Origin: Candidatus Nanoarchaeia archaeon
Lineage (GTDB): Archaea; Nanobdellota; Nanobdellia; SCGC-AAA011-G17; JACPNG01
Length of the DNA stretch: 62,417 bases
Assembly (NCBI GenBank): GCA_028713535.1
Contig: JAQTOC010000004.1
Coordinates: 1 to 62,417 of the forward strand
Direction: 5' to 3'
A program made the position numbers and the translations under genes. The notes under the pieces were generated by a model. It ran no database searches. It had not been told where the DNA came from and saw only the letters and a program-made list of their open reading frames with translations. This document shows positions 1-49,488 of the stretch, in pieces. Position 1 is the stretch's first letter. Each line of letters starts with the position of its first letter.

Positions 1-2958
1 AAATGGCATGTCTTCCACATCTGAAGCAATGTATGCATTGTCAATCGGGCTTGATCCTCTTATGATTGGTGCTGTCAAGTCAGGCCCAGAACTTATTTTA
101 AACCTGATATAATAATCTCTCTCATTTTTATTCCCTTTTGCATCCTTGCATCTTACATAAACCGTGTATTTTCCCCCATTGCTGAACCTCAATGCAGTTT
201 CTTCTTTTAATTCTCCAGGCAGATTCAAAACAGACTGGTGATCATACCTCAATAATTCATCCTGGAAATAACTAACCATCTCATCAAAATCCTTTCCCTG
301 TTCTACATTAAACTTGCACTGGCTTGGCTCGTTTGTTTTTATTCCGATGTCAACAGGGCTGTATGCAGGCAGCGCATTTTCAATTTCAAATCCGGTTGCT
401 TCTTTCTTTATTTTAATTGTTTTATCTTTTATCGATGGCTCAATGATTGGTGAATCAACATCTTTAGGATTCATATCAACGCATTTTTCCTCAGCAGTTC
501 CTGCATTGATCAAGCTGCACGTTTTTCCCAGGCTCTTGCATTTATACTCAGAGCATCCAAGCTTTTCATCATTGCATTTCTCGCAATCATCTCCTCCTTC
601 AGGAGCCTGCCACATCTGGCAATTAATAGTATATTCTTTTTCTTGATACTCTGATGCAGCAACATCAAACAATTGCACAAGCTGATAATAAGTAAAGAAT
701 GTATTTAATCCTCCAAGAATGTTCCCCCAAGTATCTTCCTTAACAATTTGTCCATCCACAATTGTATAACCTTTTTTCAAAAGTTCATCTTTCTTATCTT
801 TAATAAGAAGATCAGTTGCATACTTATAATTTGATTCAATTCCAGTAGTAGCCATATCTTTTCCTAAAATCTCTTTAGTTAAACTCTGCAATTCCTTATA
901 ATTCAAAGCCGTTCCAAAAGCACTATATCCTCCAAAAACCTGCAAAGGATTTAATCCGCCCAAAGCAGTTTCTCCAATGTCTCCAGATCTTATTCCCCCC
1001 CAGATTGTTGTTACTGACTGGAAACCCAAGGCAATCCAGTTGTCCAAGTCCCATCTCTTGCTGAATTCAGAAACAGTTTCTCTGTTAGAGCTTCCAGAAA
1101 CTAAAGCATTGATATTCCCCAAATCACTTTGTTTTAAATCATAACCATCAAAATACAAGCTGTCTGACTTCTTCTCAGCACTTGCAGTATTAACATAACC
1201 ATCAAAAGTAGCAACCCCATTCACATTAAAGTAAGCTCCGCAATCGCCTAAGCTTTTGCAGTAGTTGTTTCCTGCAACAACCCATTCATCCTCAGTGCAC
1301 TGGCAGTTTTTAACGCATTCATATGCAGTGTCTTTCCCAGAAATAAATCCAACAACTCTTGCAAGTCCTCCTCTGACCCACTCAACTTTACAGGTCTGGC
1401 TTCCTATGCTGCATCCAGTTTTAGATTCACTGTCAACAGAAACATTTCCGTTTTCGTTTTGTTTAGTATAATCAACACTCCAGAACTTCATTCCAGGTGG
1501 AACATTAGGAACACATTTTCCATTAGCGCCTTTCAGCCATTTTTCATAAATTGTTTCTTCATCGCCATTTAAGTTTGTTTCAATTTCATCATCGCTTAAA
1601 AATCCAAATATGCTTCCTGAGTTTTCAGACCAGTAGCAATCTCTTGTGTTAATATCATTGCAGCATTCCTTTGCACTGCATAATATCTGTGCTTCATTAA
1701 TATTTTCTGTGCCCTCAATTTGCACTAATGTTCCAGCGTCGTCAGGAACCGGGTCTTCTACCCCACTGCATTTTCCGCTATACATATTTCTAAGAACGCT
1801 CGGATTATTGCATGTTCCACAATCAGAATATCTGTTCGGAACACATCCAGCCTCAATATACCCTTTTTCTATATTGATAGATTCAAGCAAGCCTGTTGGT
1901 TCTTCACCTTGGATCTGCTGGACACACATTTCTTCTCTGTAGTCTTTGCATTCCTCAATCATTTCCTCTCCGTTAATGCACAAAGCCCTGTAATGCCTGC
2001 TTCCAACAAGATCTAATCCCTCTCCTACAGCGCCCTCATAAATACACCATGACTCTCCAACGTTCCTGCTTTTTCCAGAGCTTGGAGCAGCATCAAATTT
2101 AGTAGTTTCCTTACAGTTTACATCCTTGCATATAAACTCGCCGTATGCTGGTTTTTTAGTTGTATAATTCCCGCAAATAGTTCCAGAAACATAATCGCAG
2201 TTTCCACAATTAGTATCATCTGACTCAGCTTTGCAGTTTATATCTTTTACATATCCCTGGTTGTAACTTACATCCTTGTTTGAAGTATAAACATTCTCTC
2301 TGTTCCCACATGAGTCATACCAGTAAACTTTTCCTTGGTAGCATTCAGTATGATGCTGTTTTGCACAGCCACAGCTTAGCATGTCATTGCTGCACAGCAT
2401 ATCTTTGAAAAATCCCTCAGTGCTTTCATTGCTTCCCTCGCCAGCACTGCATGAATCTCTTGTTGTAAATATGCACGAATCTCCTGAGACACAGCATCCT
2501 GTTTCCTTGCTTTTTGATTTAGCCAAACATGTTTTCTCATCTGTGATTGAAGAGTCAAAAGTTGTTGTTATGTCTGAATATTTTGATCCTGTTTCCTTGC
2601 ATTTAACCTCTGTAACAAAAAATGCCTCTGTACCAATTAAACAACATCCATTAGTACATTGAGAAACTGAACATGAAGCATCAGCACTAAATGTTCCTCC
2701 GCTTTCCTTGCAAAGTGCCTGCGGAGTGTTCTTGAAACATCTACCTTCATCCTGTGAGAAACAGCATCCTAAATTGCAATAACTTGTCTGCTCGCAGGTA
2801 GCATAATTTTTCCTGAAAGCAGAACTGCATTCATTTTCATCAGTATACTGGCAGTAGTCTCCTGAATTAGTTCTCTCGCAGCATGCATCAGTTGCACTGA
2901 CAAAACTAACCAAGCAAATAAAGATAAATACAAAAACAAAAAGTTTTGATAGTTTCAT
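1..2958 (-). CDS. Giant cysteine-rich secreted surface protein, paralog of 3809..7051 (3' end runs off the window)
   Basis: Absent from the ORF track because it is open at the window edge. Manual translation from ATG 2958 gives MKLSKLFVFVFIFICLVSFVSATDACCERTNSGDYCQYTDENECSS (signal peptide, then Cys-rich modules). The frame is open where spot-checked (2340: YQGKVYWYDSCGNRENVYTS; 1500: PPGMKFWSVDYTKQNENGNV). It shares VYWYDSCGN, GESWC, VGSRHYR, WQAP..GD.CEKC and CS.YKC motifs with the 1080-aa neighbour. ATGA start/stop overlap with 2955..3761. Confidence 0.8.
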   Translation of the reverse strand, partial: MKLSKLFVFVFIFICLVSFVSATDACCERTNSGDYCQYTDENECSSAFRKNYATCEQTSYCNLGCCFSQDEGRCFKNTPQALCKESGGTFSADASCSVSQCTNGCCLIGTEAFFVTEVKCKETGSKYSDITTTFDSSITDEKTCLAKSKSKETGCCVSGDSCIFTTRDSCSAGEGSNESTEGFFKDMLCSNDMLSCGCAKQHHTECYQGKVYWYDSCGNRENVYTSNKDVSYNQGYVKDINCKAESDDTNCGNCDYVSGTICGNYTTKKPAYGEFICKDVNCKETTKFDAAPSSGKSRNVGESWCIYEGAVGEGLDLVGSRHYRALCINGEEMIEECKDYREEMCVQQIQGEEPTGLLESINIEKGYIEAGCVPNRYSDCGTCNNPSVLRNMYSGKCSGVEDPVPDDAGTLVQIEGTENINEAQILCSAKECCNDINTRDCYWSENSGSIFGFLSDDEIETNLNGDEETIYEKWLKGANGKCVPNVPPGMKFWSVDYTKQNENGNVSVDSESKTGCSIGSQTCKVEWVRGGLARVVGFISGKDTAYECVKNCQCTEDEWVVAGNNYCKSLGDCGAYFNVNGVATFDGYVNTASAEKKSDSLYFDGYDLKQSDLGNINALVSGSSNRETVSEFSKRWDLDNWIALGFQSVTTIWGGIRSGDIGETALGGLNPLQVFGGYSAFGTALNYKELQSLTKEILGKDMATTGIESNYKYATDLLIKDKKDELLKKGYTIVDGQIVKEDTWGNILGGLNTFFTYYQLVQLFDVAASEYQEKEYTINCQMWQAPEGGDDCEKCNDEKLGCSEYKCKSLGKTCSLINAGTAEEKCVDMNPKDVDSPIIEPSIKDKTIKIKKEATGFEIENALPAYSPVDIGIKTNEPSQCKFNVEQGKDFDEMVSYFQDELLRYDHQSVLNLPGELKEETALRFSNGGKYTVYVRCKDAKGNKNERDYYIRFKISSGPDLTAPIIRGSSPIDNAYIASDVEDMPF

Positions 2959-3761
2959 GCAAACCTGTCCTCTCCCTCAATAGCAAACTGGAAACTATAT
3001 TCATTGCCTTCCTTGACAATGTCATAAACCTTGTCCGGATAAGGTTTTTTTAGATAAATTTTGTATTCTCCTTTCTTTGCAAGCATATACGTTAACGTAT
3101 CAAAGTATCCAGTTACAGCTTCGCCAGCAAAAGCATCCCATCCATTTATTACATCTTGTGAAACATCATAAAGCTGGCCAAGCGGATAATCAAAGTTAAT
3201 CTCAAACTTGTCCTCTGAAACACTGACATCCTTGCTCTTTCCGCTTAATTTAACAGGCCAGTTGACATTCAGAACAACCTGGTCTGGTCTTATGGCAAAT
3301 TCATATTTTGGTGTTCCGGTTGTAATAACATTATATTTTTTAAATCCGCCTGTGTCTTTTACAGACTCCAAACAATCATTCATGAAATAAGCAGCAGCCT
3401 CATTAAGCTGATCTTCCATTTCTTTTATTGTTAACATCCTGTTGCTGCAGCCATTTTTATTGGGGATATCATAACATAGGTAGCTTACCTTGCTGTCAGC
3501 ATATAATCTGTAGCTTCCCTCAGTAGTCTCCAGATAGCCTCCTTGTTTTCCAATTGTTTTCAATAGTTCATTTGGGCTGTTTAGATTTTCATCATAACCG
3601 CATTCAATCATCTTATCCCTTATTAGATCCATCTCAGACTCTAAGCTTTCAGAAGTTATTGGCATGAATATCGTGTTTCTGGCAACCAAAAACAAAGCCA
3701 CCACCACAACAATAACTATTCCAATAATAACAAACAAAGTTACCTGACCTCTTTTTTTCAT
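2955..3761 (-). CDS. Prepilin-like protein (class III signal peptide), paralog of 33241..33939
   Basis: N-terminus MKKRGQVTLFVIIGIVIVVVVALFLV has basic residues, then G|Q, then a long hydrophobic helix, as in archaeal type IV prepilins. The globular remainder aligns by eye with 33241..33939 (KVSY, E.F.F.FD, C-terminal Y.F.FA). Its stop overlaps the start of the downstream giant gene. Confidence 0.65.
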   Translation of the reverse strand: MKKRGQVTLFVIIGIVIVVVVALFLVARNTIFMPITSESLESEMDLIRDKMIECGYDENLNSPNELLKTIGKQGGYLETTEGSYRLYADSKVSYLCYDIPNKNGCSNRMLTIKEMEDQLNEAAAYFMNDCLESVKDTGGFKKYNVITTGTPKYEFAIRPDQVVLNVNWPVKLSGKSKDVSVSEDKFEINFDYPLGQLYDVSQDVINGWDAFAGEAVTGYFDTLTYMLAKKGEYKIYLKKPYPDKVYDIVKEGNEYSFQFAIEGEDRFA

Positions 3762-3808: not shown

Positions 3809-6800
3809 TCAAACATTTATGCTGTAAACCGGGCTTAAGTTATTTTCACCATCCTTGCATATTAAATAATACCTGTTATTTTCAACAACAAACATATGTT
3901 CATAATCCACTTTATCTGTATCTTCTCCACTTCCAAATGAAAAATCATCCTCAGTAGAGTACTCGCATTCTGCATCTTCATCCAGTTCAACATGTAACGT
4001 ATCGTCTTTCTTATACAACCTGACAATAACAGGGTAGTTTACATCCTTGGTTACAGCAAATTTAATTTCTTTTGTCGCCTTGTTCCCAGCCACGTCCTCA
4101 CATTCAACCTTAAAGTCATAACTCCCCATCGCAACATCTTTAAATTCCTGGCTGTGTAAATTTGAGTTTGTTTCTTTAAACTTAATTCCGTTATATTCGC
4201 ATTCAGCCTTTCCGTTTTCTGCTCCTCCAGAAGTTGCAACATTCAATGTAAATGTATTTTTATACAAGCTTGTTTCTTTTGGGGTATAATCATCTATTGT
4301 TAATTCGCTTGGAGATTCTTTTAGATTAATCAAATAAGAATCCTGATTTACGTTTCCGCTTGAATCCATGCATTTAAAGTAATAACTAACCTTGTTGTCT
4401 TTAAATTCCAGATCAACATTTATTTTACATATATATTTATCATCGTTTTTGCTGCAGCTTGTTTCAGACAGCATCTCACCGTATTCTTTACCTTCATCAG
4501 AGTATTTACATTTAGTTGGTTCATTTGTGTAAACATTAATACCAATTTGTTTTAAGCTATAAGGAACAAAGCTATTGTCCTTGGGGTCACTTGCCTCAAT
4601 TATCGGAGCAGTCAAATCTGGCCCTTCTTTGGTATTAAACTTAATCGTATAAGGAACTTCATTTGCATTTGAAGATTTTCCTTTGCATCTTACATACAAA
4701 ATATATTTCTTGCCTGGCTCAGCTAAAATGCTTAATGAATGCTTGACATCATAATAGCCCTCTCCAAAGTAATTTACCATTGCATCATATCTTGTGCTTG
4801 GATCCTCAGAGAATTTGCATTGTGCAATTTTGTTTGTTTTAATTCCAACATTCAATCTGGTGTAAGCAGTCACATCCGGAGTTATTTTAAATCCTCTTCC
4901 GTCTTCAGCTAGCTTATATCCTTTGGTTAAATTTTCAGGCCAAGCAGTTATTACTGGAGACGTAATGTCCTTTTGTTCCAATTTGACGCACATTGGCCTG
5001 TCAGTTCCAGCATTCTCCTCGATAAACTCACACTGTGTTCCTAGACTTTCGCATTTGTACTTTGAACACTCTTTGAATTTTCCATACTCTCCGTCAACTA
5101 ATCCGCACTTCTCGCAATTGTCTCCATTGTCTGGAGCCTGCCATGCAGAACAAACTGTAGTAACCATCCTGGATTCATCAGTACTCATGAACCAGTCAAC
5201 AACAGTGAGAACTGCTGCAGCAACAACAACCGCTACAACAACCGGACCCAAAATCGGACCCAGCCCTAACAATTCTCCTATCCCCACCACATTAGAACTC
5301 CCAAAGAAAGCAGGTAATAATTCTACACCATAAACTAGATGAAAAAATGCTGCAGCCAGAGAAACACCTATACCAGCTACTCCTAAAGACCTGACCATAA
5401 CCAATTCAAAATTAACTCCCTCAGATCCAGATGATGATGCAGAAGAAACAAAATCCTCATAGTTAATTTCTCCTAAATACAAACCTTTAACATCTTGGAA
5501 TAATTCAGACGATTCAATAGGAAATAAATTTTCTTTCATGTTTTTCTTGGGCATCTCTTTTAATTCAGGAAAGTTTTCTATAAAATTTGAAAATTCATCT
5601 TCAGGCTGTTCAATAGCTCCTTCCCAATTTCTAACAAATCCGTCACCATTAAATTCACCTTTCCAGTTATACTTAGCTCCGCAATCTCCAGCAGAATTAC
5701 AAATATAATTGCTTAATGCCATCCAATTATCAGAATAAGCACTGCATCCCTCAGCACAATACATTTCTCCTCCAAGAGAATATGCTTCCGATTCCCAAAC
5801 GCTTAAGGCCTGGTTAAACCCGCCCTCACAGTTCTTAGATTCTTCTCCTAAATTTCCAGAAGACACCAGAGGCAGGCATCTCCCTAAAGCCTGATCCATC
5901 TCAATCTGCCTTCTTAAATCTGGAAACTCTGTTACATTTTTATCATTTAAGATTGGGCTGCCCTCTAATTTTTCTGCAATAGTCTCTTCATCCAAACCAG
6001 AGCTTAAACTTAACCAGTAGCAATCCTTGTCAGTTTTCTCGCAGCATTTTTTGTCAGCGATTAATGCATCTGTATAATCTTCAATCTCCTGATTAAAAGC
6101 ATCATCATCGTCATAGGTCTTAGGCAATAATTCGTAAGCAGTATTACAGTCACTCATGCATTTATCATATCTGTTTTCTTTGCAGGCAGCCTCCCTAAAA
6201 GTTTGTCCATTAACATTGACATCAGCATACATGCATATTTCATTTCTGTAATCCTCGCATGGCTCTTCAATCTCAACCCCATCAATACAAATATGCCTGT
6301 AATGCCTCGAACCAACTGCATCTAAACCAGGCCCAGAAGCAGAATCATAAACACACCAGGACTCTCCATTCTTTCTCATAACTCCTGTGTCTTTGGTGTT
6401 TTCATCCTTGTAAGTAGTTTCGCAATCTAAAGTATAACAATCAACCTTTCCATTTTCATCCCTGCATTTTAATCCGCTTGCATAATCGCATTTCTTAACA
6501 ATATTTTCTTTATTGCCACATGAGTCATACCAGTAAACATCCCCATTAGAACATTGCTTATAATTTTCTTTTTTGCATCCGCAAAAGCTCACACCAGAAC
6601 AAAATTGATCATCATAAAATTCTCCAGAACATAAATTCTTGGTCGTATAAGTGCATCCTTCATCTAAACAACAGCCAGTAGCAGAAGCCTCACAAGAAGA
6701 AGTGCATTCAGTTTCAGAGCCACCCTCACTAAATGCATAATCAATTCCTGAATATGATGAAGCAGTGGCTTCGCATTTATACTTGCTTACAAAGCTGCAC

Positions 6801-7051
6801 TGGTCTCCTATCTTGCAACAACCCTTCTGGCATTTTGAATAAGTGCTGCATTCAGGGCTTGAAAAAAACTGTCCGCCTTTATTTGAACACTCGCTCTGGG
6901 ATGTATTGTCTGAACACAGACCTTCACTCTCTAAAAAACAGCATCCTGTATCCTCAGCCCTGACTTCTTTAAGAGAATAAACTGAAAACAAAGCAAAAAT
7001 AAGGATTATGATTTCAAAAATAGCATTAGCTTTAACAAACCCCTTTTTCAT
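3809..7051 (-). CDS. Giant cysteine-rich secreted/membrane-associated surface protein (1080 aa)
   Basis: Signal-anchor N-terminus. The first ~450 aa are Cys-rich (CC, CxxC-like spacing; VYWYDSCGN, VGSRHYR). A central Gly/Ala/Val hydrophobic block follows, then four C-terminal repeats each with a conserved Cys pair (QCKF...YVRCKG; KCKY...YFKCMD; ECEY...KVECED; ECEY...YLICKD). Confidence 0.85.
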   Translation of the reverse strand: MKKGFVKANAIFEIIILIFALFSVYSLKEVRAEDTGCCFLESEGLCSDNTSQSECSNKGGQFFSSPECSTYSKCQKGCCKIGDQCSFVSKYKCEATASSYSGIDYAFSEGGSETECTSSCEASATGCCLDEGCTYTTKNLCSGEFYDDQFCSGVSFCGCKKENYKQCSNGDVYWYDSCGNKENIVKKCDYASGLKCRDENGKVDCYTLDCETTYKDENTKDTGVMRKNGESWCVYDSASGPGLDAVGSRHYRHICIDGVEIEEPCEDYRNEICMYADVNVNGQTFREAACKENRYDKCMSDCNTAYELLPKTYDDDDAFNQEIEDYTDALIADKKCCEKTDKDCYWLSLSSGLDEETIAEKLEGSPILNDKNVTEFPDLRRQIEMDQALGRCLPLVSSGNLGEESKNCEGGFNQALSVWESEAYSLGGEMYCAEGCSAYSDNWMALSNYICNSAGDCGAKYNWKGEFNGDGFVRNWEGAIEQPEDEFSNFIENFPELKEMPKKNMKENLFPIESSELFQDVKGLYLGEINYEDFVSSASSSGSEGVNFELVMVRSLGVAGIGVSLAAAFFHLVYGVELLPAFFGSSNVVGIGELLGLGPILGPVVVAVVVAAAVLTVVDWFMSTDESRMVTTVCSAWQAPDNGDNCEKCGLVDGEYGKFKECSKYKCESLGTQCEFIEENAGTDRPMCVKLEQKDITSPVITAWPENLTKGYKLAEDGRGFKITPDVTAYTRLNVGIKTNKIAQCKFSEDPSTRYDAMVNYFGEGYYDVKHSLSILAEPGKKYILYVRCKGKSSNANEVPYTIKFNTKEGPDLTAPIIEASDPKDNSFVPYSLKQIGINVYTNEPTKCKYSDEGKEYGEMLSETSCSKNDDKYICKINVDLEFKDNKVSYYFKCMDSSGNVNQDSYLINLKESPSELTIDDYTPKETSLYKNTFTLNVATSGGAENGKAECEYNGIKFKETNSNLHSQEFKDVAMGSYDFKVECEDVAGNKATKEIKFAVTKDVNYPVIVRLYKKDDTLHVELDEDAECEYSTEDDFSFGSGEDTDKVDYEHMFVVENNRYYLICKDGENNLSPVYSINV

Positions 7052-27826: not shown

Positions 27827-27876
27827 TCAAAATGTTTATATAAACCAGATTCTTTGTTTATTCAGAGGTGAATCTT

Positions 27877-28521
27877 ATGAAAAAGAATAATTCCAAGTAT
27901 CTCCTGTGGATTCTTGTTGTTCTTGCTATAATTGTTGTTTGTGCTTTGGTGTTGTTTTTTACTAATCAACCAATAATTTCAGAAGAGACTGTAGATGAAG
28001 GAATCCTTGGGGATGCAACAAAAGAACTCCCAAAAAAAGCATACCAGCTTGACATGGAGATAGGATCAAAAATTAATATTAACAAGAAAAGAATAACTCT
28101 TAGTGGCATAAGCTCAGATAACTCAGTAAGTGTAAACGTAGACAGCAAGATAGACAAGATAAGATTAGGAAGCTCAAGAACAGTAAATGACGTAAAAATA
28201 AAAAATATGTATTCAAATCCAGAAGGGAATGTGACAGAAGCTTATGCAATCTTGGGTGTCCAAGCCGCATCAATAACCTGCAAGGATTTAGATAATGGAA
28301 TCAATTACTTCACAAAAGAGAGTGCATCCGGACCACTATCCTCAGAAAATCCTCAAAAGATAATGGTAAGGACAGATAAATGTTTAAACTCCATAAAATT
28401 AATTGAGTATTGGTGCAATAACAACGGTTATTTAAAATCCGAAACATATTCCTGCCCAAATGGCTGCAGATATGGAGCATGCATTAAGGATTCAAGGGAT
28501 ATAGTAACCCAAACAAGCTAA
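27877..28521 (+). CDS. Membrane-anchored secreted protein with Cys-rich C-terminal module
   Basis: ATG 27877 sits 6 nt after GAGGTGA. N-terminal signal anchor. C-terminal CKDLDNG...EYWCNNNG...CPNGCRYGAC module. Confidence 0.6.
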   Translation: MKKNNSKYLLWILVVLAIIVVCALVLFFTNQPIISEETVDEGILGDATKELPKKAYQLDMEIGSKININKKRITLSGISSDNSVSVNVDSKIDKIRLGSSRTVNDVKIKNMYSNPEGNVTEAYAILGVQAASITCKDLDNGINYFTKESASGPLSSENPQKIMVRTDKCLNSIKLIEYWCNNNGYLKSETYSCPNGCRYGACIKDSRDIVTQTS

Positions 28522-28571: not shown

Positions 28572-29078
28572 ATGGATAAAAAAGGTGCAGTTGAACTTTC
28601 AATTTCTACAATAGTTGTTGTTATCATAGGTGTAACATTATTGGTGTTAGGCCTTACATTTGTAAGAGGGATATTTAAAAAAGTTGGTAGTTTGTCAGAC
28701 CAGTCCTTCCAGGTAGGGGAAAAAATGATACAAGATCAGATGTCCTCAGAGCAGAAATTCTGGATATCAGGAGTAACATTTGAAATTGAATCTGGAGAAT
28801 CAATAACAGTCCATACAGGAATACAAAACTTTGGTGACCCCGGAGTCTCAAATACGTTTGAGCTTAAGGTAGAACCCGGCCAAGGTGTTGGAAAAGATTG
28901 GTTTACTTTGCCCCCTAGCATGAAAGTCAGTGTAGGCGAGAAAAAAGCATTTCCATTCGTCATTAATGTTCCTAAAGGGACTGAGCCAGGAAAAGTATTT
29001 ACATTTAATATTATCGCATCAAAAGACAGCAAAGAATACGACAGCCAGGCAATAATCATAAAAATAGCAAAGGAATAA
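28572..29078 (+). CDS. Archaeal type IV pilin-like protein (class III signal peptide)
   Basis: MDKKGAVELSISTIVVVIIGVTLLVLGL is a textbook KKG|A prepilin signal. The remainder is a beta-rich domain. GAGGTGA Shine-Dalgarno upstream. Confidence 0.7.
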   Translation: MDKKGAVELSISTIVVVIIGVTLLVLGLTFVRGIFKKVGSLSDQSFQVGEKMIQDQMSSEQKFWISGVTFEIESGESITVHTGIQNFGDPGVSNTFELKVEPGQGVGKDWFTLPPSMKVSVGEKKAFPFVINVPKGTEPGKVFTFNIIASKDSKEYDSQAIIIKIAKE

Positions 29079-29149: not shown

Positions 29150-29611
29150 ATGGTAATGTACAACACTAAACCAGAAATCATAGTAGAAAAGACTGCTTTA
29201 GAACTAAAGAAAACAATAAAGGCACCTGAATGGTCTAAGTTCGTAAAAACCGGAGTTGCAAAAGAAAGGCCTCCAGAGGACTTGGATTGGTGGTACAAAA
29301 GAGCAGCCTCAATTCTAAGAAAAATCTATATGTATGGCCCGATTGGTGTTTCAAAATTAAGGGTAAAATACGGCTCTAAGAAAAACCGTAAAACCAAACC
29401 AGAGAAATTTTACAGAGCATCTGGAAAAGTTATAAGGACAATCCTGCAGCAATTAGAAGAGCAAAAACTTATTGAAAAGGCTGCCAAAGGCGTTCATAAA
29501 GGAAGGATTATTACAAATAAAGGAAAGAGTCTATTAGATAAGATAGGTAAAGATGGCAATAAAGTGGTTAGCAAAGAAGAAAAGACTGGCAAAGAAGCTA
29601 GATCAAACTAA
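29150..29611 (+). CDS. rps19e: 30S ribosomal protein S19e
   Basis: APEWSKFVKTGVAKERPPEDLDWWYKRAASILRKIY and RKILQ-like QQLE motifs are typical of S19e. Confidence 0.9.
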   Translation: MVMYNTKPEIIVEKTALELKKTIKAPEWSKFVKTGVAKERPPEDLDWWYKRAASILRKIYMYGPIGVSKLRVKYGSKKNRKTKPEKFYRASGKVIRTILQQLEEQKLIEKAAKGVHKGRIITNKGKSLLDKIGKDGNKVVSKEEKTGKEARSN

Positions 29612-29723
29612 ATGGGCTCCATTCTGGACAGTTCCAAAAAAGTATGGCCCTGGAAAAAAGATTCACCCAGGTAGGCATACAACCATTAAAAGAAGCTGGA
29701 AAAGAACAAGGACAAGAGCATAA
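29553..29723 (+). CDS. rpl39e: 50S ribosomal protein L39e
   Basis: Below the ORF-track length cutoff. Manual translation gives MAIKWLAKKKRLAKKLDQTKWAPFWTVPKKYGPGKKIHPGRHTTIKRSWKRTRTRA (56 aa), a typical L39e. It overlaps the S19e 3' end in another frame. Confidence 0.8.
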   Translation: MAIKWLAKKKRLAKKLDQTKWAPFWTVPKKYGPGKKIHPGRHTTIKRSWKRTRTRA

Positions 29724-29725
29724 AC

Positions 29726-30229
29726 ATGGCAGATCTAAAACGTGATTATATCATTAACTTAAGAAAGGAAATAGAAAAAGTTCCTAGGTATAAAAAGACA
29801 TCCAAGGCAATGAAAGGCCTGAGAAAATTCATTCTGAAAAATATGAAAGTTGATGAAGTCAAGATTCTTCCAGAGCTAAATGAGTTTATTTTTTCACAAG
29901 GAAGGAAAAACCCTCCAACAAGGGTTGAAGTCACATGCTTAAAAATCGAGGATAAAGATAAGTCAATTGCAAGGGCAAATTTGAAAGGACATAAGGTAGA
30001 GCCTGAAGAGAAAAAGGAAAAGAAAGGCCTTGAAAAACTAAAAGACAAGATAACAGGAAAGGACAAAGAGGAAAAAACAAAAGAAGATGTTCTTGAGCAC
30101 AAAGAAACAAAGGAAATAAAGGAAAAAGAAATTAAGAAATTCCATCTGGATAAAGAAACAAAAGAGACTGAAAAACCTCATGCTCACAGAAAGCAGGAAA
30201 AAGTCATTGGAACTAAGGCTGATAAGTAA
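29726..30229 (+). CDS. rpl31e: 50S ribosomal protein L31e with long Lys/Glu-rich C-terminal extension
   Basis: The core (YIINLRKEIEKVPRYKKTSKAMKGLRKFILKNMKV..VKILPELNEFIFSQGRKNPPTRVEV) matches L31e. About 80 extra K/E-rich residues follow. Confidence 0.85.
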   Translation: MADLKRDYIINLRKEIEKVPRYKKTSKAMKGLRKFILKNMKVDEVKILPELNEFIFSQGRKNPPTRVEVTCLKIEDKDKSIARANLKGHKVEPEEKKEKKGLEKLKDKITGKDKEEKTKEDVLEHKETKEIKEKEIKKFHLDKETKETEKPHAHRKQEKVIGTKADK

Positions 30230-33200
30230 TTATTTTGTTGTAGCTATTTTAACTTCTGGCATAGTATCTTCATCATTAGACCATAAGACATTTCCTTCTT
30301 TATCAGAAACACTAAGTCTGGCTCTCAATGCCACAACATAATTATCATCCTTTTCTCCAAGATCAGTTCTTAATTTTAAGCAACTATTAGAAGCCTCATC
30401 TCCATCAACCCCATTAACATAAACTCTGAATGGTTCTGAAATCGAATATAAGCTTTCGCCAAGATTAAATCCTATGTGAGTATCATAAAATACAGTAGTA
30501 CCCATAACCTCTTCTTTACCAATTTTAACTTCAACAGTATATCCGCTGCAATCTCCTTTGTATGGAACAACTAATCCAAATTTATTATCATAACAGTTCA
30601 AGGTCTTCCCAACCGCACTTTGTTTCTTGCTATTCTTATCTATATACTTCCAAGTGATTTTGCCATAATCAACCTGGCAAATCTTATAAGTAGGACTTAA
30701 ACATTTTCCATTAGTACATCTCTCATTTGCTTTACAATGAGTTTCAACCCATACTTTATTTTCACATTTCCAAACAGAGTTTTCAGTCTTATCACAAACA
30801 GGACCAGGATAGTTAGCTATATCACAATAAGTATTTGTGTCAGGGGCAAAGGAAGTAGCACATCTTGCCTTTCCATTTTCTTCCACGCAAATCTTTTTTT
30901 CATCAGCACAGTACCCATTTGTAACCATAGATTGTTTTAATAAATCTAACAAGTCTGCCTCCTCGCTGGTAACTGTATCACCTAAAACTCCTTCAATTTC
31001 CTGAGAACCAAGAGGAATCCAATAATTGCCTGTTTTGTACTGACTCAAAATAGGTTTATCTTTGCAGGTTTTATCATTTTTAGAATCATACCCACACAAA
31101 TGCATGCAAGCAAGCAAAACATTACTGTCGCTTCCTCCGCACTTGGTGGTTCCCAATGTATCATAACAAATACTATTCACAAACTTCAGAGAAGATATAA
31201 CCTTCTCCTCTTTACTAACAGATCCAGCTCCAAGATTACAAATAGCTCCTTTATTAGCATCTGAAACACATCCATTAGCGCAACTACAAAATTCTTTTTT
31301 GGTTTTGTCACAATTCATGCCTTCTGTGTAAAGGATATTCTCCCAAGCAAGGGTCTTTCCAGATCCCACACATTTAACCAATATCTGCTGGGTGTCTGAG
31401 TATTCAACACATGCAAATTTATCACGATTAATCTCATTGCACAACTCTCCAATGTGTACAAACTTAGCATTAGATTTAACACCTTTTTTGGTAAGAGGTT
31501 GTTTAGCATCTGTTTGTTTACCAACTATTGTTGCTTTAATCTCATCTTTTTCTTTAGCTTCAATCTTAGATTTGACTTCACATCCTCTTGGAAGGACGAT
31601 TTCTTTTCCAACATCAATGCTGTTTACATTTTCAATTTTATTTTTATCCTTAACACATTTATTAACAAAATCAAGCAAGAGAGCAGACTCAGAAATTCCC
31701 TCCTCTTTTCCAGTTACTTTTTTAAGAAGGGGTTTATTCTCTTTGATGTGACCAATTAATTTATCACAATTATCCCTGACGATTGTTGTAAGCCAATCCC
31801 CAGACTTGACAGTATATTTAATTTCTTCAGAATAATCACAAAATTCATTTGCAGAAAGGGATTTTTCAGTGGATGTTTTTGCATCTTTTGTTTCTTGTGC
31901 AACTTTAGCCTTTGCAGCCTCGACTTCAGAAACAGTCTTTTCAACAAAAGTAGCACACTTTAATTTAATTTCATCATAGGCCTGCTTGGTGTTAAACTCC
32001 TGAGCAGATTCAAAGACATTGCTGTCAACCAGATCTCCAAAATGACTCTCAGTTATGGCACAAACCTTTTTTGTCTTGGGTATATAATAAAAATTATAGC
32101 CAGCACGGCCCGTAGGAACTTCCTCGCTTATAATAAAATCCTTTCCACTGAACAAATTTGAAAATTCAGCCGTCCCTTTAATCTTTAATTGCTTATTAGT
32201 TTCATAAGCTTTGGTATCAATCTCAATATCATTTTCCATAACAGAAATTTTCTCATCTTTCAAAAATGTTCCTTTTATTTTAATCTCTCCGGTTAAATCT
32301 GTAAATTTAATTGGGTTACTTACAGAAACCTCCTCAAAAACAGAATCTTCAGTAGTTACAAAATTATTATCTTCATAGCCTGTTAGAGACTGGCCAGAAG
32401 GGCCTATAAAGTTTAATTTTCCCTTGGAAAGCTCTATCTCCTTAAAATCATCATACTTGATTTCAACCCACTTGTTCCCTCCGGAAAACTCAAATCTGAA
32501 ATTCCCTGGCTGGACCTCATCTGAAGCAACAATTGTTGTTGATTCATCCCCTACAATAAATGAACATTTTTTATCCTTAAGTGAGACAGATATCGAATTT
32601 TCAAACTGGATTAAATTGCCGCATACATCTGCCGGAGAATCTTTTGAAGTTGAAACCTTCATGTCCTTCTTAAGAGAACTATAGTAAAAACTTAGTTTTT
32701 CATCAGGCTGAATGTTATTTTCATCAAATCCAAAGTCCTGCCCCTTAAACTTAAATATGGGGGTGGATGTATCCGCCTGTTTCAAAAAGAATTTAATAAC
32801 TGGATTATTAATTTTAAGTCCAACTGCTCCTGAATCTTGGGTAGGAACTCCTGTAATCTCTGAAAGAATATCTGAAGAAACAGAACAGTCTCCAGATATA
32901 ACAACATAAGAAACATCCAACAGATTATTTCCTTCCCCTTCACTTAGCCTAAGAGTATATTTCTCAAAAGGTCCATTTTTATATTTAATCTGCTCCCCAA
33001 CAACATCAAAATTAAAGACTAAGTCGTTTTTAGAAAATCCAAATAACTTCTCATAATTATTAAATGCAGCATCAGTTGCTTCAACCCTAAAGGTATCACA
33101 ACCAAGATTAGCTAAAGCTTTAGGAGTAGTGATATACAAAACTTCCTTGCCATCGATAGTATCAAGATTAAATAAAATTTCCTCAGCACTGACAAATCCA

Positions 33201-33244
33201 CTAACCAAAACTGCAAGCATAATCAATAAAATAAATTTCCTCAT
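30230..33244 (-). CDS. Giant secreted surface protein (1004 aa) with LysM-like segment and Cys-rich C-terminal half
   Basis: Signal peptide MRKFILLIMLAVLVSGFVSAEE. LysM-like YTVKSGDWLTTIVRDNC...VGKEIVLP. The C-terminal ~450 aa are Cys-rich. ATGA overlap with the upstream prepilin-like gene. Confidence 0.8.
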   Translation of the reverse strand: MRKFILLIMLAVLVSGFVSAEEILFNLDTIDGKEVLYITTPKALANLGCDTFRVEATDAAFNNYEKLFGFSKNDLVFNFDVVGEQIKYKNGPFEKYTLRLSEGEGNNLLDVSYVVISGDCSVSSDILSEITGVPTQDSGAVGLKINNPVIKFFLKQADTSTPIFKFKGQDFGFDENNIQPDEKLSFYYSSLKKDMKVSTSKDSPADVCGNLIQFENSISVSLKDKKCSFIVGDESTTIVASDEVQPGNFRFEFSGGNKWVEIKYDDFKEIELSKGKLNFIGPSGQSLTGYEDNNFVTTEDSVFEEVSVSNPIKFTDLTGEIKIKGTFLKDEKISVMENDIEIDTKAYETNKQLKIKGTAEFSNLFSGKDFIISEEVPTGRAGYNFYYIPKTKKVCAITESHFGDLVDSNVFESAQEFNTKQAYDEIKLKCATFVEKTVSEVEAAKAKVAQETKDAKTSTEKSLSANEFCDYSEEIKYTVKSGDWLTTIVRDNCDKLIGHIKENKPLLKKVTGKEEGISESALLLDFVNKCVKDKNKIENVNSIDVGKEIVLPRGCEVKSKIEAKEKDEIKATIVGKQTDAKQPLTKKGVKSNAKFVHIGELCNEINRDKFACVEYSDTQQILVKCVGSGKTLAWENILYTEGMNCDKTKKEFCSCANGCVSDANKGAICNLGAGSVSKEEKVISSLKFVNSICYDTLGTTKCGGSDSNVLLACMHLCGYDSKNDKTCKDKPILSQYKTGNYWIPLGSQEIEGVLGDTVTSEEADLLDLLKQSMVTNGYCADEKKICVEENGKARCATSFAPDTNTYCDIANYPGPVCDKTENSVWKCENKVWVETHCKANERCTNGKCLSPTYKICQVDYGKITWKYIDKNSKKQSAVGKTLNCYDNKFGLVVPYKGDCSGYTVEVKIGKEEVMGTTVFYDTHIGFNLGESLYSISEPFRVYVNGVDGDEASNSCLKLRTDLGEKDDNYVVALRARLSVSDKEGNVLWSNDEDTMPEVKIATTK

Positions 33245-33939
33245 TTTTCCACCCTGTTTGCAAATACTAATTCATAATCTGAATTGACATCTCCAACCAT
33301 ATAAACCATTGATTTTTCCTCGTCAAAAGAAGAATAAGTTACATCATAACCAATGTCTTTTAAAAACTCAGGATAAACATACCCAGGATCTTTTTCAGTT
33401 TTTTCAATAATGCTTAAAGCAGCACCATAGCATCCCTTGACATCAAAGTTAAACTCAGCCTCAGAGCTATCTTCAATTTTATATTCCTTGTCTCCTTTTT
33501 TCAGGTTTAAGTAATAATCCACATTGGTAGTTACAGTGTCTCCAATCTCAACCAAAACCTCGTTGCTCTTATCCAAAACCTCATACTCAGAAAGGTCAAC
33601 GCAGTCAAATAAGTTATTAGAAACATAATTTGAAACTTCAGTCTCCATTATGTCTAAATCAGGCAGGTAATTTTTCCCCAAATAATAACCATAACTGACC
33701 TTGATGCCCTGTACATCTAGGTAATTCTCAGAGTTAAGACTCCCTCCAGATAATCCAACAAGCAGCAACGATTCTCTGCTCAAATCATTGAAACAGCCCT
33801 CGATTTGCTCTCTGACTTCAGGGGCTTCTCCAGTAAAAATCCCTTGATTTATGCTTGGGATCAAGAAGATTAAGCCAACAACAATAACAACTATAATTCC
33901 AATAATAACAAACAAAGCAACCTGTCCCCTTTTTTGCAT
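33241..33939 (-). CDS. Prepilin-like protein (class III signal peptide), paralog of 2955..3761
   Basis: Start moved to ATG 33939, giving MQKRGQVALFVIIGIIVVIVVGLIFLI, nearly identical in pattern to the N-terminus of 2955..3761. The rest aligns by eye. Confidence 0.65.
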   Translation of the reverse strand: MQKRGQVALFVIIGIIVVIVVGLIFLIPSINQGIFTGEAPEVREQIEGCFNDLSRESLLLVGLSGGSLNSENYLDVQGIKVSYGYYLGKNYLPDLDIMETEVSNYVSNNLFDCVDLSEYEVLDKSNEVLVEIGDTVTTNVDYYLNLKKGDKEYKIEDSSEAEFNFDVKGCYGAALSIIEKTEKDPGYVYPEFLKDIGYDVTYSSFDEEKSMVYMVGDVNSDYELVFANRVEK

Positions 33940-34085
33940 ATTATTCCTAGCTTTAAATCCTATAAAAACTTTTCTGTAAAAGAAGAGGGTTAAATCCTTG
34001 TAGAATATACTTACTCTCAAGTAACAACAAAACAAAAGGTTTATAAATCTGTTAATGTCTACAAATAGCGATTAAAAATAATTAT

Positions 34086-34232: not shown

Positions 34233-35426
34233 ATGGCTAAAAAAGATAAAAAAAAGGAAGAAACATCCAAGGGACCACAAAAACCATTCAATGGTATAAC
34301 AATCCCGGCAATTCCTGTCACCAAATCCGAATCTGCTGAGGTTCAACCTGCCCCTACCCCAAAACCGAAGGCTAAGGCCAAGACCTTGAAACCAACAACT
34401 CCGAAACTCAAATCAAAGAAAACTCAATCAGTGAAAGCTGAAGCCCAAAAACCAGAAGCCCAAAAGGCCACACCTGCCGTCACCCCGACTGCTGAAGAAA
34501 TTTCTGAATCTATTCATCATCAGTTTGTTCAACAAATTATCAAGCCCGATTCCGAGCAATCACCAACCATAACTATAAACATCCCGGACATACCTGCTCC
34601 TGCTCCAAAACCCAATCCGAAACCAGAAGTCAAACAACCAGTTCAGGAAAAGGCCAAAGATTTTCCATGGAAATTCGGAGGGGAATCCGTTCCTGAAGCA
34701 GCAGAAATTCAACCAGAACAACCCACAACCCCGAAGAAAAATGGTTTTCATTTCCCACATTTGCCAATATTGGCATGGAGCGGAATCTTCGCAGCAGTAA
34801 CTGTTCTCATCCTGATAATCCTCTTCCCCGGCATAAACAACAAGGTCATTACCTCAACGACCACTACCACTAAACCAATCGACAAGATGGACATACAATC
34901 TGTCAGCGATCCATCGCACATCGAAGGAATCCTTGGGCCTTTCAACTTCTCGTTTAAAACCGAGAAGTCATTCGAAACAACTGGGCCAGTAGGAAACCTT
35001 GGAAACGAAGAAATTCGCACCTATCTCGACGAGCTCAAAAAGCTCAAAGAGGTAACTTCCGAAACAAACCGCCATATAGTAAATTGTATCTACTACAAAG
35101 GCGGCGGGATGGATTGGTTAGCAGGATTATGTCCTTCCCAAAAACCAGTCGCAAAGGCCCTCATTGCTCTTCTCGAAAAAGAGAATCAAATGAGGAAAGA
35201 ACTCGGCCGCAAGGCCAATGTTCTAAACCTTCTGGGCGGCCATGCAATAACCATCCCTTACTCTTGGATTCCAAAACCGATTGAGCCCATTAAAGAGGAG
35301 CTCTTAGGGATTCTCAAGGAAGGGGTCAGCAATGGAGACAAGGATAGTTTCAAATTCGCATTAGAGGCTTGGGAAACCAAGGTCCTCAAGGAGGTAGTAA
35401 TATCCCAGCCTCCTCGGTTGAGATAA
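34233..35426 (+). CDS. Pro/Lys/Ala-rich single-pass membrane protein with globular C-terminal domain
   Basis: 397 aa. Low-complexity PKPKAKAKTLKPTTPKLK... N-terminal half, one TM (WSGIFAAVTVLILIILFPGI), then an ordered ~180-aa C-terminus. Visibly G+C-richer than its neighbours. Confidence 0.65.
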   Translation: MAKKDKKKEETSKGPQKPFNGITIPAIPVTKSESAEVQPAPTPKPKAKAKTLKPTTPKLKSKKTQSVKAEAQKPEAQKATPAVTPTAEEISESIHHQFVQQIIKPDSEQSPTITINIPDIPAPAPKPNPKPEVKQPVQEKAKDFPWKFGGESVPEAAEIQPEQPTTPKKNGFHFPHLPILAWSGIFAAVTVLILIILFPGINNKVITSTTTTTKPIDKMDIQSVSDPSHIEGILGPFNFSFKTEKSFETTGPVGNLGNEEIRTYLDELKKLKEVTSETNRHIVNCIYYKGGGMDWLAGLCPSQKPVAKALIALLEKENQMRKELGRKANVLNLLGGHAITIPYSWIPKPIEPIKEELLGILKEGVSNGDKDSFKFALEAWETKVLKEVVISQPPRLR

Positions 35427-44197: not shown

Positions 44198-45066
44198 AAC
44201 AAGCATTGTTTTACACAAAAAAAGAAAATAATAAAGTTCAATGTAATCTCTGCCCCAATAACTGCTTAATTCCAGAAAACAAGATAGGTTCTTGCAGAGC
44301 AAGAAAAAACATCAAAGGGGTATTGTACTCTCTGGTTTACGGAAAACCAGCATCAATCAACATAGATCCGATAGAGAAAAAGCCATTGTACCATTTTCTT
44401 CCAGGAACTCAGGTTTTATCTTTTGGAACTTTTGGCTGTAATCTTCATTGTTTATTCTGCCAGAACTGGGAAATCTCCCAGGCAATGAATGAAGACATCG
44501 AGATTTTAGAACCAAAAAGGATTGTAGAGCTTGCAAAAGAATACAAAACTCCCTCAATAGCATACACATACACGGAACCCGCAATATTTTTTGAATATGT
44601 TTTAGAAACAGCAAAACTTGCAAAAAAAGAAAAAATAAAAAACGTGATGGTCTCTAATGGTTACATCAACGAAAAGCCATTAAAAGAATTGATAAAATAC
44701 ATCGATGCGTTTAATATTGACCTTAAAGCATTTGATGAGGATTTCTACAAAAAAATCTGCTTTGGCAAGTTAAAACCTATCCTAGAAACATTAAAACTAA
44801 TTAAAAAATACAAAAAACATTTGGAAATAACAAATTTGATAATCCCAACTAAAAACGATAACCTAAAAGAAATAGAAAAAATGTGCGTTTGGATTTCAAA
44901 AAATCTTGGAAAAGACACTCCATTGCATTTCTCAAGATTCTTTCCATGTTATAAGCTAACAAACTTAGAACCGACTCCAATTGAAACTTTAGTAAAAGCA
45001 AAAGAAATAGCCAAAAAATACCTGAAATACGTCTATATCGGAAATGTTCCGGCTAGTTTTGAATAA
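44194..45066 (+). CDS. amrS: AmmeMemoRadiSam-system radical SAM enzyme
   Basis: CNLHCLFCQNW (CxxxCxxC). N-terminal Cys cluster CNLCPNNC...C. Length and motifs are typical of this pyruvate-formate-lyase-activase-like family. Confidence 0.8.
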   Translation: MKQALFYTKKENNKVQCNLCPNNCLIPENKIGSCRARKNIKGVLYSLVYGKPASINIDPIEKKPLYHFLPGTQVLSFGTFGCNLHCLFCQNWEISQAMNEDIEILEPKRIVELAKEYKTPSIAYTYTEPAIFFEYVLETAKLAKKEKIKNVMVSNGYINEKPLKELIKYIDAFNIDLKAFDEDFYKKICFGKLKPILETLKLIKKYKKHLEITNLIIPTKNDNLKEIEKMCVWISKNLGKDTPLHFSRFFPCYKLTNLEPTPIETLVKAKEIAKKYLKYVYIGNVPASFE

Positions 45067-45097
45067 TTCTTATTTAACTTTCTATGTTCTTAAGTTT

Positions 45098-46036
45098 ATG
45101 AAAAAACTAATAATTTTAATGCTAATTATCCCTTTAGTTTCAGCCTTGGAGATTTCAGAGATACTTCCAGACCCAGATGATGAAACTGAGTTTGTTGAAA
45201 TATACAATCCTTCAAATAAAATAATCAACTTAGAAAGTTATTTGTTAAAAGACAAATCCAATTCAACAAAGTACTTCACAGAAATCTCAGGCGGTTCAGC
45301 TATAAAACCAAATGATTACTTGATTTTAAAAACAAAATCCTTTCTTAATAATGATTTTGAGATAATAAGGTTATACGATAACACAACTCTGATTAACCAA
45401 GTTTCCTATGATTATTCAAAAAAAGGTCTCTCCTTTTCAAAAATAAACAACGAATGGATTTTAACTAAGCCAACTCCAGGCAAAGAAAACAAGCAAAAGC
45501 AGATTAAACTAGAATCAGAACTAACCATAGAATCAATCTCAAAGGAAAACATCTCTTTTGGTGATTTAATTCAGATAAAGCTAAAAATATACAGGGCAGA
45601 TACAAGTAAAAAAGAAATAAAAATATCGCTAGAAAAAAACAATGAAAAAGTTTCTCCTGTAATCTCAGCTCTTGTTAATAATAAATATGAGCCAATCACC
45701 TTAGAAATTCCGTTCCAGATTCCGATAAACTGCAAGAACAATTCTGAAGAAGGAAATTATACCTTAGCAATTAATGGTTTAGACACAGAAATAGCTTATG
45801 ATTTAGAAATTAAAGGCCAAAATCCAGAAAACTGTGTAAAGGAAACAATAACAAAGGAAAAAGAAGTAATAAAATACAAAGAATGCACCACCGAAACCAT
45901 TTTAAACTCAAAATCAAACTCAACCTCTGAAGTAGTATACGAGTCTAAACAGGAAAAATCAAAGAGGTACGCATTATTTATGTTTTCAGGACTCTTGATA
46001 TTGCTTTTAATCAAAAAATGGAACAAAAAATCATAA
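45098..46036 (+). CDS. Lamin-tail-domain (LTD) surface protein with C-terminal TM anchor
   Basis: Start at ATG 45098 (MKKLIILMLIIPLVSA). LEISEILPDPDDETEFVEIYNPSNKIINLESYLLKD is an LTD signature. C-terminal anchor YALFMFSGLLILLLIKKW. Confidence 0.65.
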   Translation: MKKLIILMLIIPLVSALEISEILPDPDDETEFVEIYNPSNKIINLESYLLKDKSNSTKYFTEISGGSAIKPNDYLILKTKSFLNNDFEIIRLYDNTTLINQVSYDYSKKGLSFSKINNEWILTKPTPGKENKQKQIKLESELTIESISKENISFGDLIQIKLKIYRADTSKKEIKISLEKNNEKVSPVISALVNNKYEPITLEIPFQIPINCKNNSEEGNYTLAINGLDTEIAYDLEIKGQNPENCVKETITKEKEVIKYKECTTETILNSKSNSTSEVVYESKQEKSKRYALFMFSGLLILLLIKKWNKKS

Positions 46037-46446
46037 TAAAAACAGTAATCGAAATACTTGGGGCTCCAAAAGAACATGTAGAGGAAACACTGAAAAAAGT
46101 TGTTGAAAAACTAAAAGAAGGTTTTAAGGTAAGAAATGCAAAAACCTATGAGGCCCAGGAAACAGAACTGGAAAAACACAAGCTATGGACTGCATTCACA
46201 GAAGCAGAAATCCAGATGGAAAATATTTCTAAAATAACCGATTTCTGTTTTGATTTTATGCCTTCTTCAATAGAAATCATAGAGCCAGATGAGCTAAGGA
46301 TAAAATCACCAGAATACGCTGAATTAATAAATGAGCTGTTAGCCAGGCTGCATCAGTACGATATGATCGTTAAAAAGTTAAACGCAGAAAACATATTATT
46401 AAAAAAGCAGATTATTTCTTCTTCAAAGAAGCAGCATATTCAGTAA
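46018..46446 (+). CDS. Hypothetical cytoplasmic protein
   Basis: 142-aa ORF with ordinary composition and a coiled-coil C-terminus. No motif recognised. Confidence 0.5.
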   Translation: MEQKIIIKTVIEILGAPKEHVEETLKKVVEKLKEGFKVRNAKTYEAQETELEKHKLWTAFTEAEIQMENISKITDFCFDFMPSSIEIIEPDELRIKSPEYAELINELLARLHQYDMIVKKLNAENILLKKQIISSSKKQHIQ

Positions 46447-47635: not shown

Positions 47636-47638
47636 GAC

Positions 47639-49423: not shown

Positions 49424-49488
49424 CTTGCCTCTTTTATCAAAACAGATAGAGCAGAAAGTATTTAAAAATGTTTCTGTAACCTATAAGC

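Follow-up and report, generated by a model that had tools for sequence, protein, structure and literature searches.

The stretch of DNA analysed here (the window; 62,417 nucleotides) is a segment of archaeal chromosome of the Woesearchaeota/Nanoarchaeota type, with ~35% G+C, whose source is a landfill metagenome. At positions 30,230–33,939 it carries a two-gene cassette (cassette 2), in which sm2, a small gene with a prepilin-like N terminus, is joined through an overlap of four bases to big2, the gene for a secreted protein of 1004 residues. The combination of a small gene and a giant is a previously undescribed module that is widespread in, and has been seen so far only in, DPANN archaea. 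The reading we favour, with a probability of roughly 55%, is that sm2 is a cognate prepilin-like adaptor or anchor that would display big2, a co-translated and fast-evolving surface protein.

Both genes of cassette 2 are on the minus strand (Table 1), where the sequence at their junction reads ...GTGGAAAAATGAGGAAA.... A first-pass annotation, made from the sequence alone, had described the small gene as fused by an ATGA overlap to a secreted open reading frame (ORF) of ~1000 residues, and the junction is as described, with the overlap at 33241–33244 and an ORF of 1004 residues that starts with a Sec-type signal peptide; a common operon with translational coupling is likely from this overlap. 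The start of sm2 is given as a TTG codon at 34035 in the ORF listing, and the hidden Markov model (HMM) of the family aligns from the methionine at 33939. The TATA-like box that precedes this methionine codon is a candidate promoter for the sm2–big2 unit. Over positions 29558–34049 the window shows zero differences from an independent Logan contig from a landfill-metagenome run. At the far end of the cassette, the stop codons of the convergent genes for L31e (plus strand) and big2 (minus strand) abut at 30229/30230 with zero bases between them, so that their transcripts must either overlap or end within the coding sequence of the other gene.

Table 1. Positions of cassette 2, cassette 1 and associated features in the window (aa, amino acids; E, expectation value; L069, a syntenic locus from a Nanoarchaeia metagenome-assembled genome (MAG))
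Feature	Position	Strand	Description and basis
sm2	33241..33939	-	232 aa, divergent member of an undescribed DPANN prepilin-like (class-III-signal) family; ORF, start codon, family HMM
Class-III-signal-like N terminus of sm2 (residues 1-27)	33859..33939	-	Leader MQKRG, then ~21-residue hydrophobic helix
TATA-like box GTTTTTATAGG	33965..33975	-	~27-35 nt upstream of sm2 ATG; partly conserved in L069
ATGA overlap	33241..33244	-	sm2 stop (TGA) and big2 start (ATG) share bases; read from sequence
big2	30230..33244	-	1004-aa secreted protein, sequence orphan; ORF
Sec-type signal peptide of big2 (MRKFILLIMLAVLVSGFVSA/EE)	33185..33244	-	Predicted cleavage at the slash; sequence and hydropathy profile
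Segment earlier called LysM-like (big2 residues 477-552)	31589..31816	-	Pfam LysM E 0.025
Cys-rich C-terminal half of big2 (residues 493-955)	30380..31768	-	Cys positions
31-nt block AGATTTATAAACCTTTTGTTTTGTTGTTACT	34020..34050	-	With palindromic TATA box; identical in L069 at 7902-7932
Separate class-III-signal-like protein	28572..29078	+	168 aa, N terminus MDKKGAVELSISTIVVVIIGV; 77% identical in L069
sm1	2955..3761	-	268 aa, canonical family member of cassette 1; family HMM E 1.8e-82
big1	1..2958	-	Cys-rich giant partner of sm1, at least 986 aa, cut by window edge; translation
big0	3809..7051	-	1080-aa Cys-rich paralogue of big1, upstream of sm1; phmmer big1 vs big0 E 6e-92

The small protein of cassette 2 had been proposed to be a paralogue of sm1, the small protein encoded near the left edge of the window. 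In direct comparison the full-length proteins share 27% identity over 206 residues (BLASTP E 0.002), the similarity is not significant once the first 30 residues are removed (BLASTP E 2.3), and the mature parts compared with phmmer give E values of 1–2, also not significant. Judged by pairwise searches alone, the similarity would thus be confined to the hydrophobic N terminus; the family profile overturns that picture. An HMM built from 58 family members, with both window proteins left out, matched full-length sm2 with an E value of 1.4e-35, its residues 29–232 with 2.3e-22 (74 bits) and the mature part of sm1 with 2.9e-64; the 58 members had been chosen with a profile that contained sm2, a selection that cannot account for 74 bits. 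Because both mature domains are matched, the homology spans the whole protein, and on this profile evidence sm2 is a true but divergent homologue of sm1. The two proteins are the sole matches to the family HMM in the window.

A word-index search of 5.8 billion proteins with sm2 and big2 as queries returned only the queries themselves. At a threshold of E ≤ 1e-3, exhaustive HMMER searching with a profile of sm1 and sm2 recovered 4,695 representative clusters (counted at 50% identity), and 1,457 remained at E ≤ 1e-10; the representatives are mostly ~250 residues long and matched end to end. The family motifs, all of which are found in sm1, are KRGQVTxFxIxGI, a conserved Cys, GxQGG, VxYLCxNIP..C, PLGxLY, PYPDxIY and FQFAIEGE, and sm2 retains the invariant pair of cysteines and the GG motif. 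In an alignment of 60 family sequences the invariant positions are G5, Q6, C49, G65 and C113. Conservation in the globular part is limited to Cys, Gly, Pro and aromatic positions, and the lack of any conserved polar catalytic residue points to a domain that is structural rather than enzymatic. No Pfam model matched any of the 60 family members, nor did any NCBIfam model, and the PDB searched by sequence with the family yielded essentially nothing; sm1 gave a weak N-terminal match to DUF7287 (E 0.16). The family is absent from the viral contigs of IMG/VR, and a viral or mobile origin was dropped on that account.

The association of the small gene with a giant was counted for family genes with at least 900 nt of downstream sequence, a partner being an ORF on the same strand that starts within ±40 nt. 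In 80 loci from Genome Taxonomy Database (GTDB) genomes, 78 of 90 family genes were followed by an ORF of at least 300 residues; 70 partners had at least 500 residues, 30 were joined by an exact ATGA and 70 had a hydrophobic N terminus. The corresponding figures for 80 loci from Joint Genome Institute (JGI) metagenomes were 48 of 57 family genes, with 42 partners of at least 500 residues, 31 exact ATGA overlaps and 48 hydrophobic N termini. Pooled, 126 of 147 family genes (86%) precede a large ORF, 61 of the pairs with an exact ATGA overlap, compared with 62 of 471 control genes (13%; non-family genes of 150–400 residues in the same loci) that precede an ORF of at least 300 residues and 6.6% that precede one of at least 500. 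In addition, 20 of the top 150 family representatives are natural fusions of the small and the giant protein, in which the small domain is followed by a linker of 15–25 residues and then by the Cys-rich giant from its GCC motif, with no internal signal peptide. A C-terminal hydrophobic anchor was found in none of 69 complete partners, and 51 of the 69 have no internal one. Judged from its label or from the genes nearby, every genome record found is of a DPANN archaeon. All of the GTDB loci, some doubtful labels apart, are assigned by label to Woesearchaeota, Pacearchaeota or Nanoarchaeota. Many family-bearing MAGs are labelled 'uncultured Methanosarcinales' (L015, L017, L023, L026, L028, L030, L034, L037 and L063 among others), and one each 'Patescibacteria group bacterium' and 'bacterium'; these labels look doubtful, and the genes around the cassette in other loci are DPANN-like.

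The giants are diverse. Sequence comparison separates the 79 adjacent partners into at least 25 clusters; their Cys content is 0–8% and their length 250–2,200 residues. A Pfam scan of 35 partners gave three matches to Big_13 and one each to Big_6, fn3 and SLT, and a sequence search of the PDB with the partners gave essentially nothing. The biggest cluster is the Cys-rich type of big1 and big0, which is paired with canonical small genes of ~250 residues; homologues of big1 lie downstream of family genes in ~27 related loci. Extended small genes (613–676 residues) pair with giants of ~1,300–2,200 residues where these are complete. This extended subfamily (613–710 residues; L004, L006, L012, L014 and others) consists of the family domain with ~400 extra residues, and beside it there is regularly a conserved multi-pass membrane protein, mostly of ~215–320 residues (18 neighbouring ORFs, 129–322 residues). 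In 59 of 65 cases a small protein and its closest family relative are paired with giants from one and the same cluster, where 12.4 such cases would be expected at random; shared ancestry contributes to the observed figure. Even so, the result shows that these are cognate pairs, which diversify together, rather than cargoes of a universal anchor.

These results bear on the picture of a conserved small partner with a variable giant that had been drawn from the two cassettes of the window. The pattern itself is real and general, as borne out by the consistent large downstream gene (126 of 147 against 13% of controls), the clusters and fusions, and the syntenic locus L069 considered below. Its interpretation as one common anchor with freely exchangeable cargo does not stand in the face of the same-cluster pairing. 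Nor did a search for shared recognition segments reveal one common to all partners: the C termini are not shared, and an N-terminal module of ~200 residues is common to several otherwise distinct partner clusters and is in neither big2 nor the Cys-rich type. The suggestion that the cargo might be an effector finds little in its favour, as a single partner out of 35 has an enzymatic Pfam domain (SLT). Peptidoglycan-related domains are also present among the cassette's 149 nearest neighbours in loci L001–L080: SLT (two), YkuD (two) and AnmK (one).

The giant of cassette 2 is an orphan. No relative of big2 was found in 5.8 billion proteins, 160 related loci, a scan of JGI metagenomes, the PDB or Pfam, and no similarity to the giants of cassette 1 was detected, in keeping with the earlier statement that the cargo differs; a likeness of Cys motifs to a 217-residue protein at 27868–28521 was not significant. 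Hydrophobic segments are restricted to residues 1–27 of big2, and 28 of its 36 cysteines lie within residues 493–955, so that the C-terminal half is indeed Cys-rich. A single-sequence AlphaFold2 model was unusable (predicted local distance difference test (pLDDT) score of 34). The LysM-like segment that the first-pass annotation had recognised was not confirmed: its match to PF01476 scored 15.0 bits against a gathering cut-off of 20.9, covered only profile positions 1–12 of 43 and included ~30 extra residues, and a Pfam scan of the whole protein gave no LysM match.

The site that holds cassette 2 is hypervariable. L069 is syntenic with the window around the cassette, and its proteins are close to those of the window for HerA (80% identity), Cbf5 (80%), L31e (71%), S19e (81%) and the prepilin-like protein of 168 residues listed in Table 1. 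The small family gene of L069 is 34% identical to sm2 over the first 119 residues only, and it is joined by ATGA to a giant of 924 residues with no detectable similarity to big2. Contigs of relatives in landfill samples matched the flanks and a 31-nt block upstream of sm2 and did not match cassette 2. Complete turnover of at least one such site is seen between genomes with housekeeping proteins that are 80% identical. No repeats that would suggest site-specific insertion flank the cassette, and a diversity-generating retroelement was rejected, there being no reverse transcriptase in the window. The 31-nt block is unique in the window and lies between genes that are not conserved in L069; it is the only stretch beyond 30229 matched by the contig of a co-occurring relative. 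It has no Rfam match, and could be a promoter for either of the divergent genes or a small RNA. The divergent gene on its far side (34233–35426, plus strand) encodes a protein of 397 residues that is rich in Lys, Pro and Ala over its N-terminal half, has a single transmembrane segment and a C-terminal domain, and is without a Pfam match. Since it is not conserved in L069, the variable island extends past the two-gene cassette.

By comparison, cassette 1 (big0, sm1 and big1, downstream of PCNA) is the canonical locus and is inherited vertically. In 12 related loci the cassette likewise has PCNA upstream of it, and the order giant–small–giant after PCNA is also found in L083. The sm1 gene overlaps the next gene by ATGA at 2955–2958. 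In four distant relatives (L021, L033, L083 and L084) another four genes whose products have class-III-like N termini come after the giant, and in L083 and L084 these are followed by a protein with a Pfam S_layer_C domain. The canonical order reads PCNA, (giant), small gene, giant, four prepilin-like genes (~165, ~315, ~150–170 and ~140 residues) and S_layer_C protein, with spans of 1–14713 in L083, 7955–20885 in L084, 8001–14703 in L033 and 3895–10955 in L021. Of this locus the window holds only the left part, as cassette 1, and the remainder lies beyond coordinate 1. In big0 and its relatives a Gly-rich, strongly hydrophobic internal region (residues 550–625 of big0), located after the Cys-rich N-terminal part and before the Ig-like C-terminal part, probably forms two or more membrane spans.

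The N terminus of sm2, MQKRG/QVALFVIIGIIVVIVVGLIFL, matches the FlaFind-type pattern of class III signals, with a predicted cleavage between G5 and Q6. Both sm2 and sm1 carry the N-terminal motif (a short basic leader with Lys or Arg at −2 and Gly or Ala at −1, followed by ~20 hydrophobic residues), and among the real ORFs of the window they alone carry the strict pattern. It is present in 158 of 185 relatives, with Arg or Lys at −2, Gly (146) or Ala (12) at −1 and leaders of 4–8 residues, and Gln occupies +1 in 157 of the 158. An AlphaFold2 model of sm2, computed from a multiple sequence alignment of 39 sequences (pLDDT 86.5; predicted template modelling score 0.76), consists of a helix at residues 4–26, a low-confidence or disordered linker at 28–35 and an α/β domain. 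As modelled, the small protein combines a pilin-like signal with a fold unlike known pilins. The separate class-III-signal-like protein at 28572–29078, ~1.2 kb from cassette 2, could be a structural pilin of this organism and may be linked to the cassette.

In bacteria, the large PilC/PilY1 adhesin is held at the pilus tip by a single minor pilin, PilK, and the fusion PilK-PLUG is functional in Neisseria (bioRxiv 10.64898/2026.09.18.752573). Like PilK (of the PilX/PilW class) and PilC/PilY1 of type IVa pili, each pair described here joins a small prepilin-type protein to one that is very large, is not a pilin and carries a Sec signal; in relatives, the canonical locus, with five prepilin-like genes and one giant, resembles fimU-pilVWXY1E; and the natural small–giant fusions resemble PilK-PLUG. 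The likeness has limits. There is no similarity in sequence or fold to PilK, PilX or PilY1, the hosts are single-membrane archaea, and it is the N terminus of the giant, not the C terminus, that adjoins the small domain in the natural fusions. The cassettes of the window have no pilus machinery beside them, and cassette 2 is only the pair. The junctions of the natural fusions are no more than suggestive of docking by a short terminal segment through β-strand augmentation. Homology to PilY1/PilC (C-terminal β-propeller; Neisseria_PilC, DUF2341) was sought in big2, big1, big0 and 32 other partners without a Pfam match, and a PDB sequence search gave none.

Among archaea, large adhesin-like proteins have been proposed as components of the type IV pilus tip (Makarova et al. 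2016, PMC4858521; bioRxiv 10.64898/2026.04.22.720090), and the loci described in these two studies likewise contain large secreted proteins proposed to be adhesins. The sugar-binding proteins of the Sulfolobus bindosome are similar in that they bear an N terminus of class III type on a globular domain that is not a classical pilin. In contrast to those archaeal class-III proteins, the present family is linked through overlap or fusion to a gene for a giant, is confined so far to DPANN and has no Pfam or NCBIfam model. As far as text searches show, it is not described in either study, and such searches found no description in the literature of the family or of its coupling to giant genes. Fused family members, with a pilin-type N terminus and a carried module, also resemble the modular type IV pilins PilB and PilC of Streptococcus sanguinis (PMC8179133, PMC9934059); in the window, unlike in that species, the modules are in separate genes, the carried module has ~1000 residues and no known domain, and the fold is not that of a pilin. 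Large extracellular proteins with murein-transglycosylase domains, suspected of a role in host attachment, have been reported in Woesearchaeota and Pacearchaeota (Castelle et al. 2021, PMC8204110). These are of the same lineages and belong to the same class of very large secreted proteins, and the SLT domain in 1 of 35 partner giants and in two neighbours fits such reports; big2 and most partners, however, have no SLT domain, and the small partner gene is not mentioned there. The general idea of large adhesins associated with pilins is already known.

Display of big2 through a cognate adaptor or anchor is favoured because the set of five prepilin-like genes with one giant, the specific pairing and the fusions match the minor-pilin/PilY1 operons. 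In such a mechanism, sm2 would be exported through its class III (prepilin-type) signal and probably be cut at G5/Q6 by the prepilin peptidase of the cell, and its hydrophobic helix would either retain it in the membrane or allow it to enter a type IV filament. The α/β domain, which is novel and would be extracellular and braced by a disulfide, could then bind the N-terminal part of big2 made from the same mRNA, and big2, exported by Sec and with no anchor of its own, would be held by sm2 at the cell surface or the tip of a pilus and may act there as an adhesin or as a protein that recognises a host or a substrate. The pair would evolve as a cognate unit that is replaced or diversified very quickly.

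Several observations weigh against this reading. A prepilin peptidase, a type IV pilus ATPase and a platform protein are absent from the 62-kb window, and the same machinery is absent from the 25 families listed, out of 108 matched, for the 149 nearest cassette neighbours. The model of sm2 has a short helix of 23 residues and a linker, not the long continuous helix of a pilin packed on its sheet. Foldseek searches with this model returned nothing from the PDB at E ≤ 1e-3 (template modelling (TM) score ≤ 0.17, with no pilin in the top 50) and no credible match from the viral set BFVD (TM score ≤ 0.24), and the curated pilin and class-III-signal models of Pfam and NCBIfam do not match the family. 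In addition, cassette 2 is a stand-alone pair without the four extra prepilin-like genes, and sm2 is without several of the canonical motifs, among them the LCxNIP..C disulfide loop and PYPD. As big2 has no recognisable domain, the term 'adhesin' rests on analogy, and internal hydrophobic segments are present in many of the canonical Cys-rich giants, which may be membrane proteins, not tip adhesins.

Part of this evidence suits a plain membrane tether, in which the signal would be an uncleaved signal-anchor and the small protein would hold the giant at the surface with no filament involved. We consider this possible and on balance unlikely. It agrees with the short transmembrane helix, flexible linker and non-pilin fold of the model, with the absence of pilus machinery from the window and from the families listed for the neighbours, and with partners that have no anchors of their own, the small domain being the would-be N-terminal anchor in the fusions. 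It does not agree well with the essentially invariant Gly/Gln at −1/+1 and Lys/Arg at −2 across ~160 diverged sequences, which is typical of a class III cleavage site, or with the four further prepilin-like genes of the canonical locus. A transient role for the small protein as an export or folding helper, in which it would assist the disulfide-rich folding or the release of the giant and have no place in the final structure, appears improbable. Translational coupling would give matched synthesis, the pair of cysteines is conserved and many partners are Cys-rich; on the other hand, neither a redox motif (CxxC) nor catalytic residues are conserved, many partners have 0–1% Cys, and the stable natural fusions argue for a permanent 1:1 association.

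More improbable still is an S-layer-type pair, with the giant as the outer lattice and the small protein as a membrane stalk in the manner of SlaA/SlaB of Sulfolobales. A large secreted and a small membrane-bound protein do share one operon, and a gene for an S_layer_C protein ends the canonical locus in L083 and L084; that gene is a separate one already present in the locus, however, and the giants themselves carry no S-layer domain. Further, the transmembrane segment is N-terminal in the small protein and C-terminal in SlaB, a genome has several cassettes, whose giants are unrelated (the window holds three giants and two cassettes), and the site is hypervariable between close relatives. That the genes are chance neighbours in a compact genome, with convergent N termini and no functional link, might be argued from the non-significant pairwise similarity of sm1 and sm2 outside the N terminus and from the frequency of 4-nt overlaps in compact genomes, and is refuted by the profile match to the mature domain (E 2e-22), the adjacency of 86% against 13% in controls and the 20 natural fusions.

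It is still an open question how DPANN archaea locate their hosts and keep hold of them, and for most of their lineage-specific proteins no function has been predicted. The family defined here is large, with thousands of clusters, is covered by no database model and has no structural match in the PDB or BFVD; overlap, synteny and fusion link it to giant secreted proteins, which are obvious candidates for host contact. The small gene is a simple marker with which the surface-protein repertoire of these organisms can be catalogued. A more specific proposal, which we offer tentatively and regard as somewhat doubtful, is that the modules constitute a hitherto unrecognised host-recognition apparatus of DPANN archaea, in which a prepilin-like adaptor of novel fold, with its co-translated or fused giant, would be plugged into the tip of a type IV filament, and stand-alone cassettes in hypervariable islands between housekeeping genes could be swapped to change the host or substrate. 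If the small protein and giant do form such a tip apparatus, cassette swaps would alter the host or substrate to which the cell attaches.

The remaining genes of the window include those for the ribosomal proteins S19e and L31e, Cbf5, HerA, PCNA, Hjc, RFC, TBP and one tRNA-Phe, together with an eRF1-family protein (aRF1/Pelota-type) and two class I tRNA synthetases. On the minus strand, at 46412–52933, a MoxR (AAA_3)–DUF58–BatA/VWA operon adjoins genes for secreted proteins of 594 and 407 residues. At 45044–46036 is a gene for a protein with a lamin-tail domain, and the whole forms another surface-related cluster.

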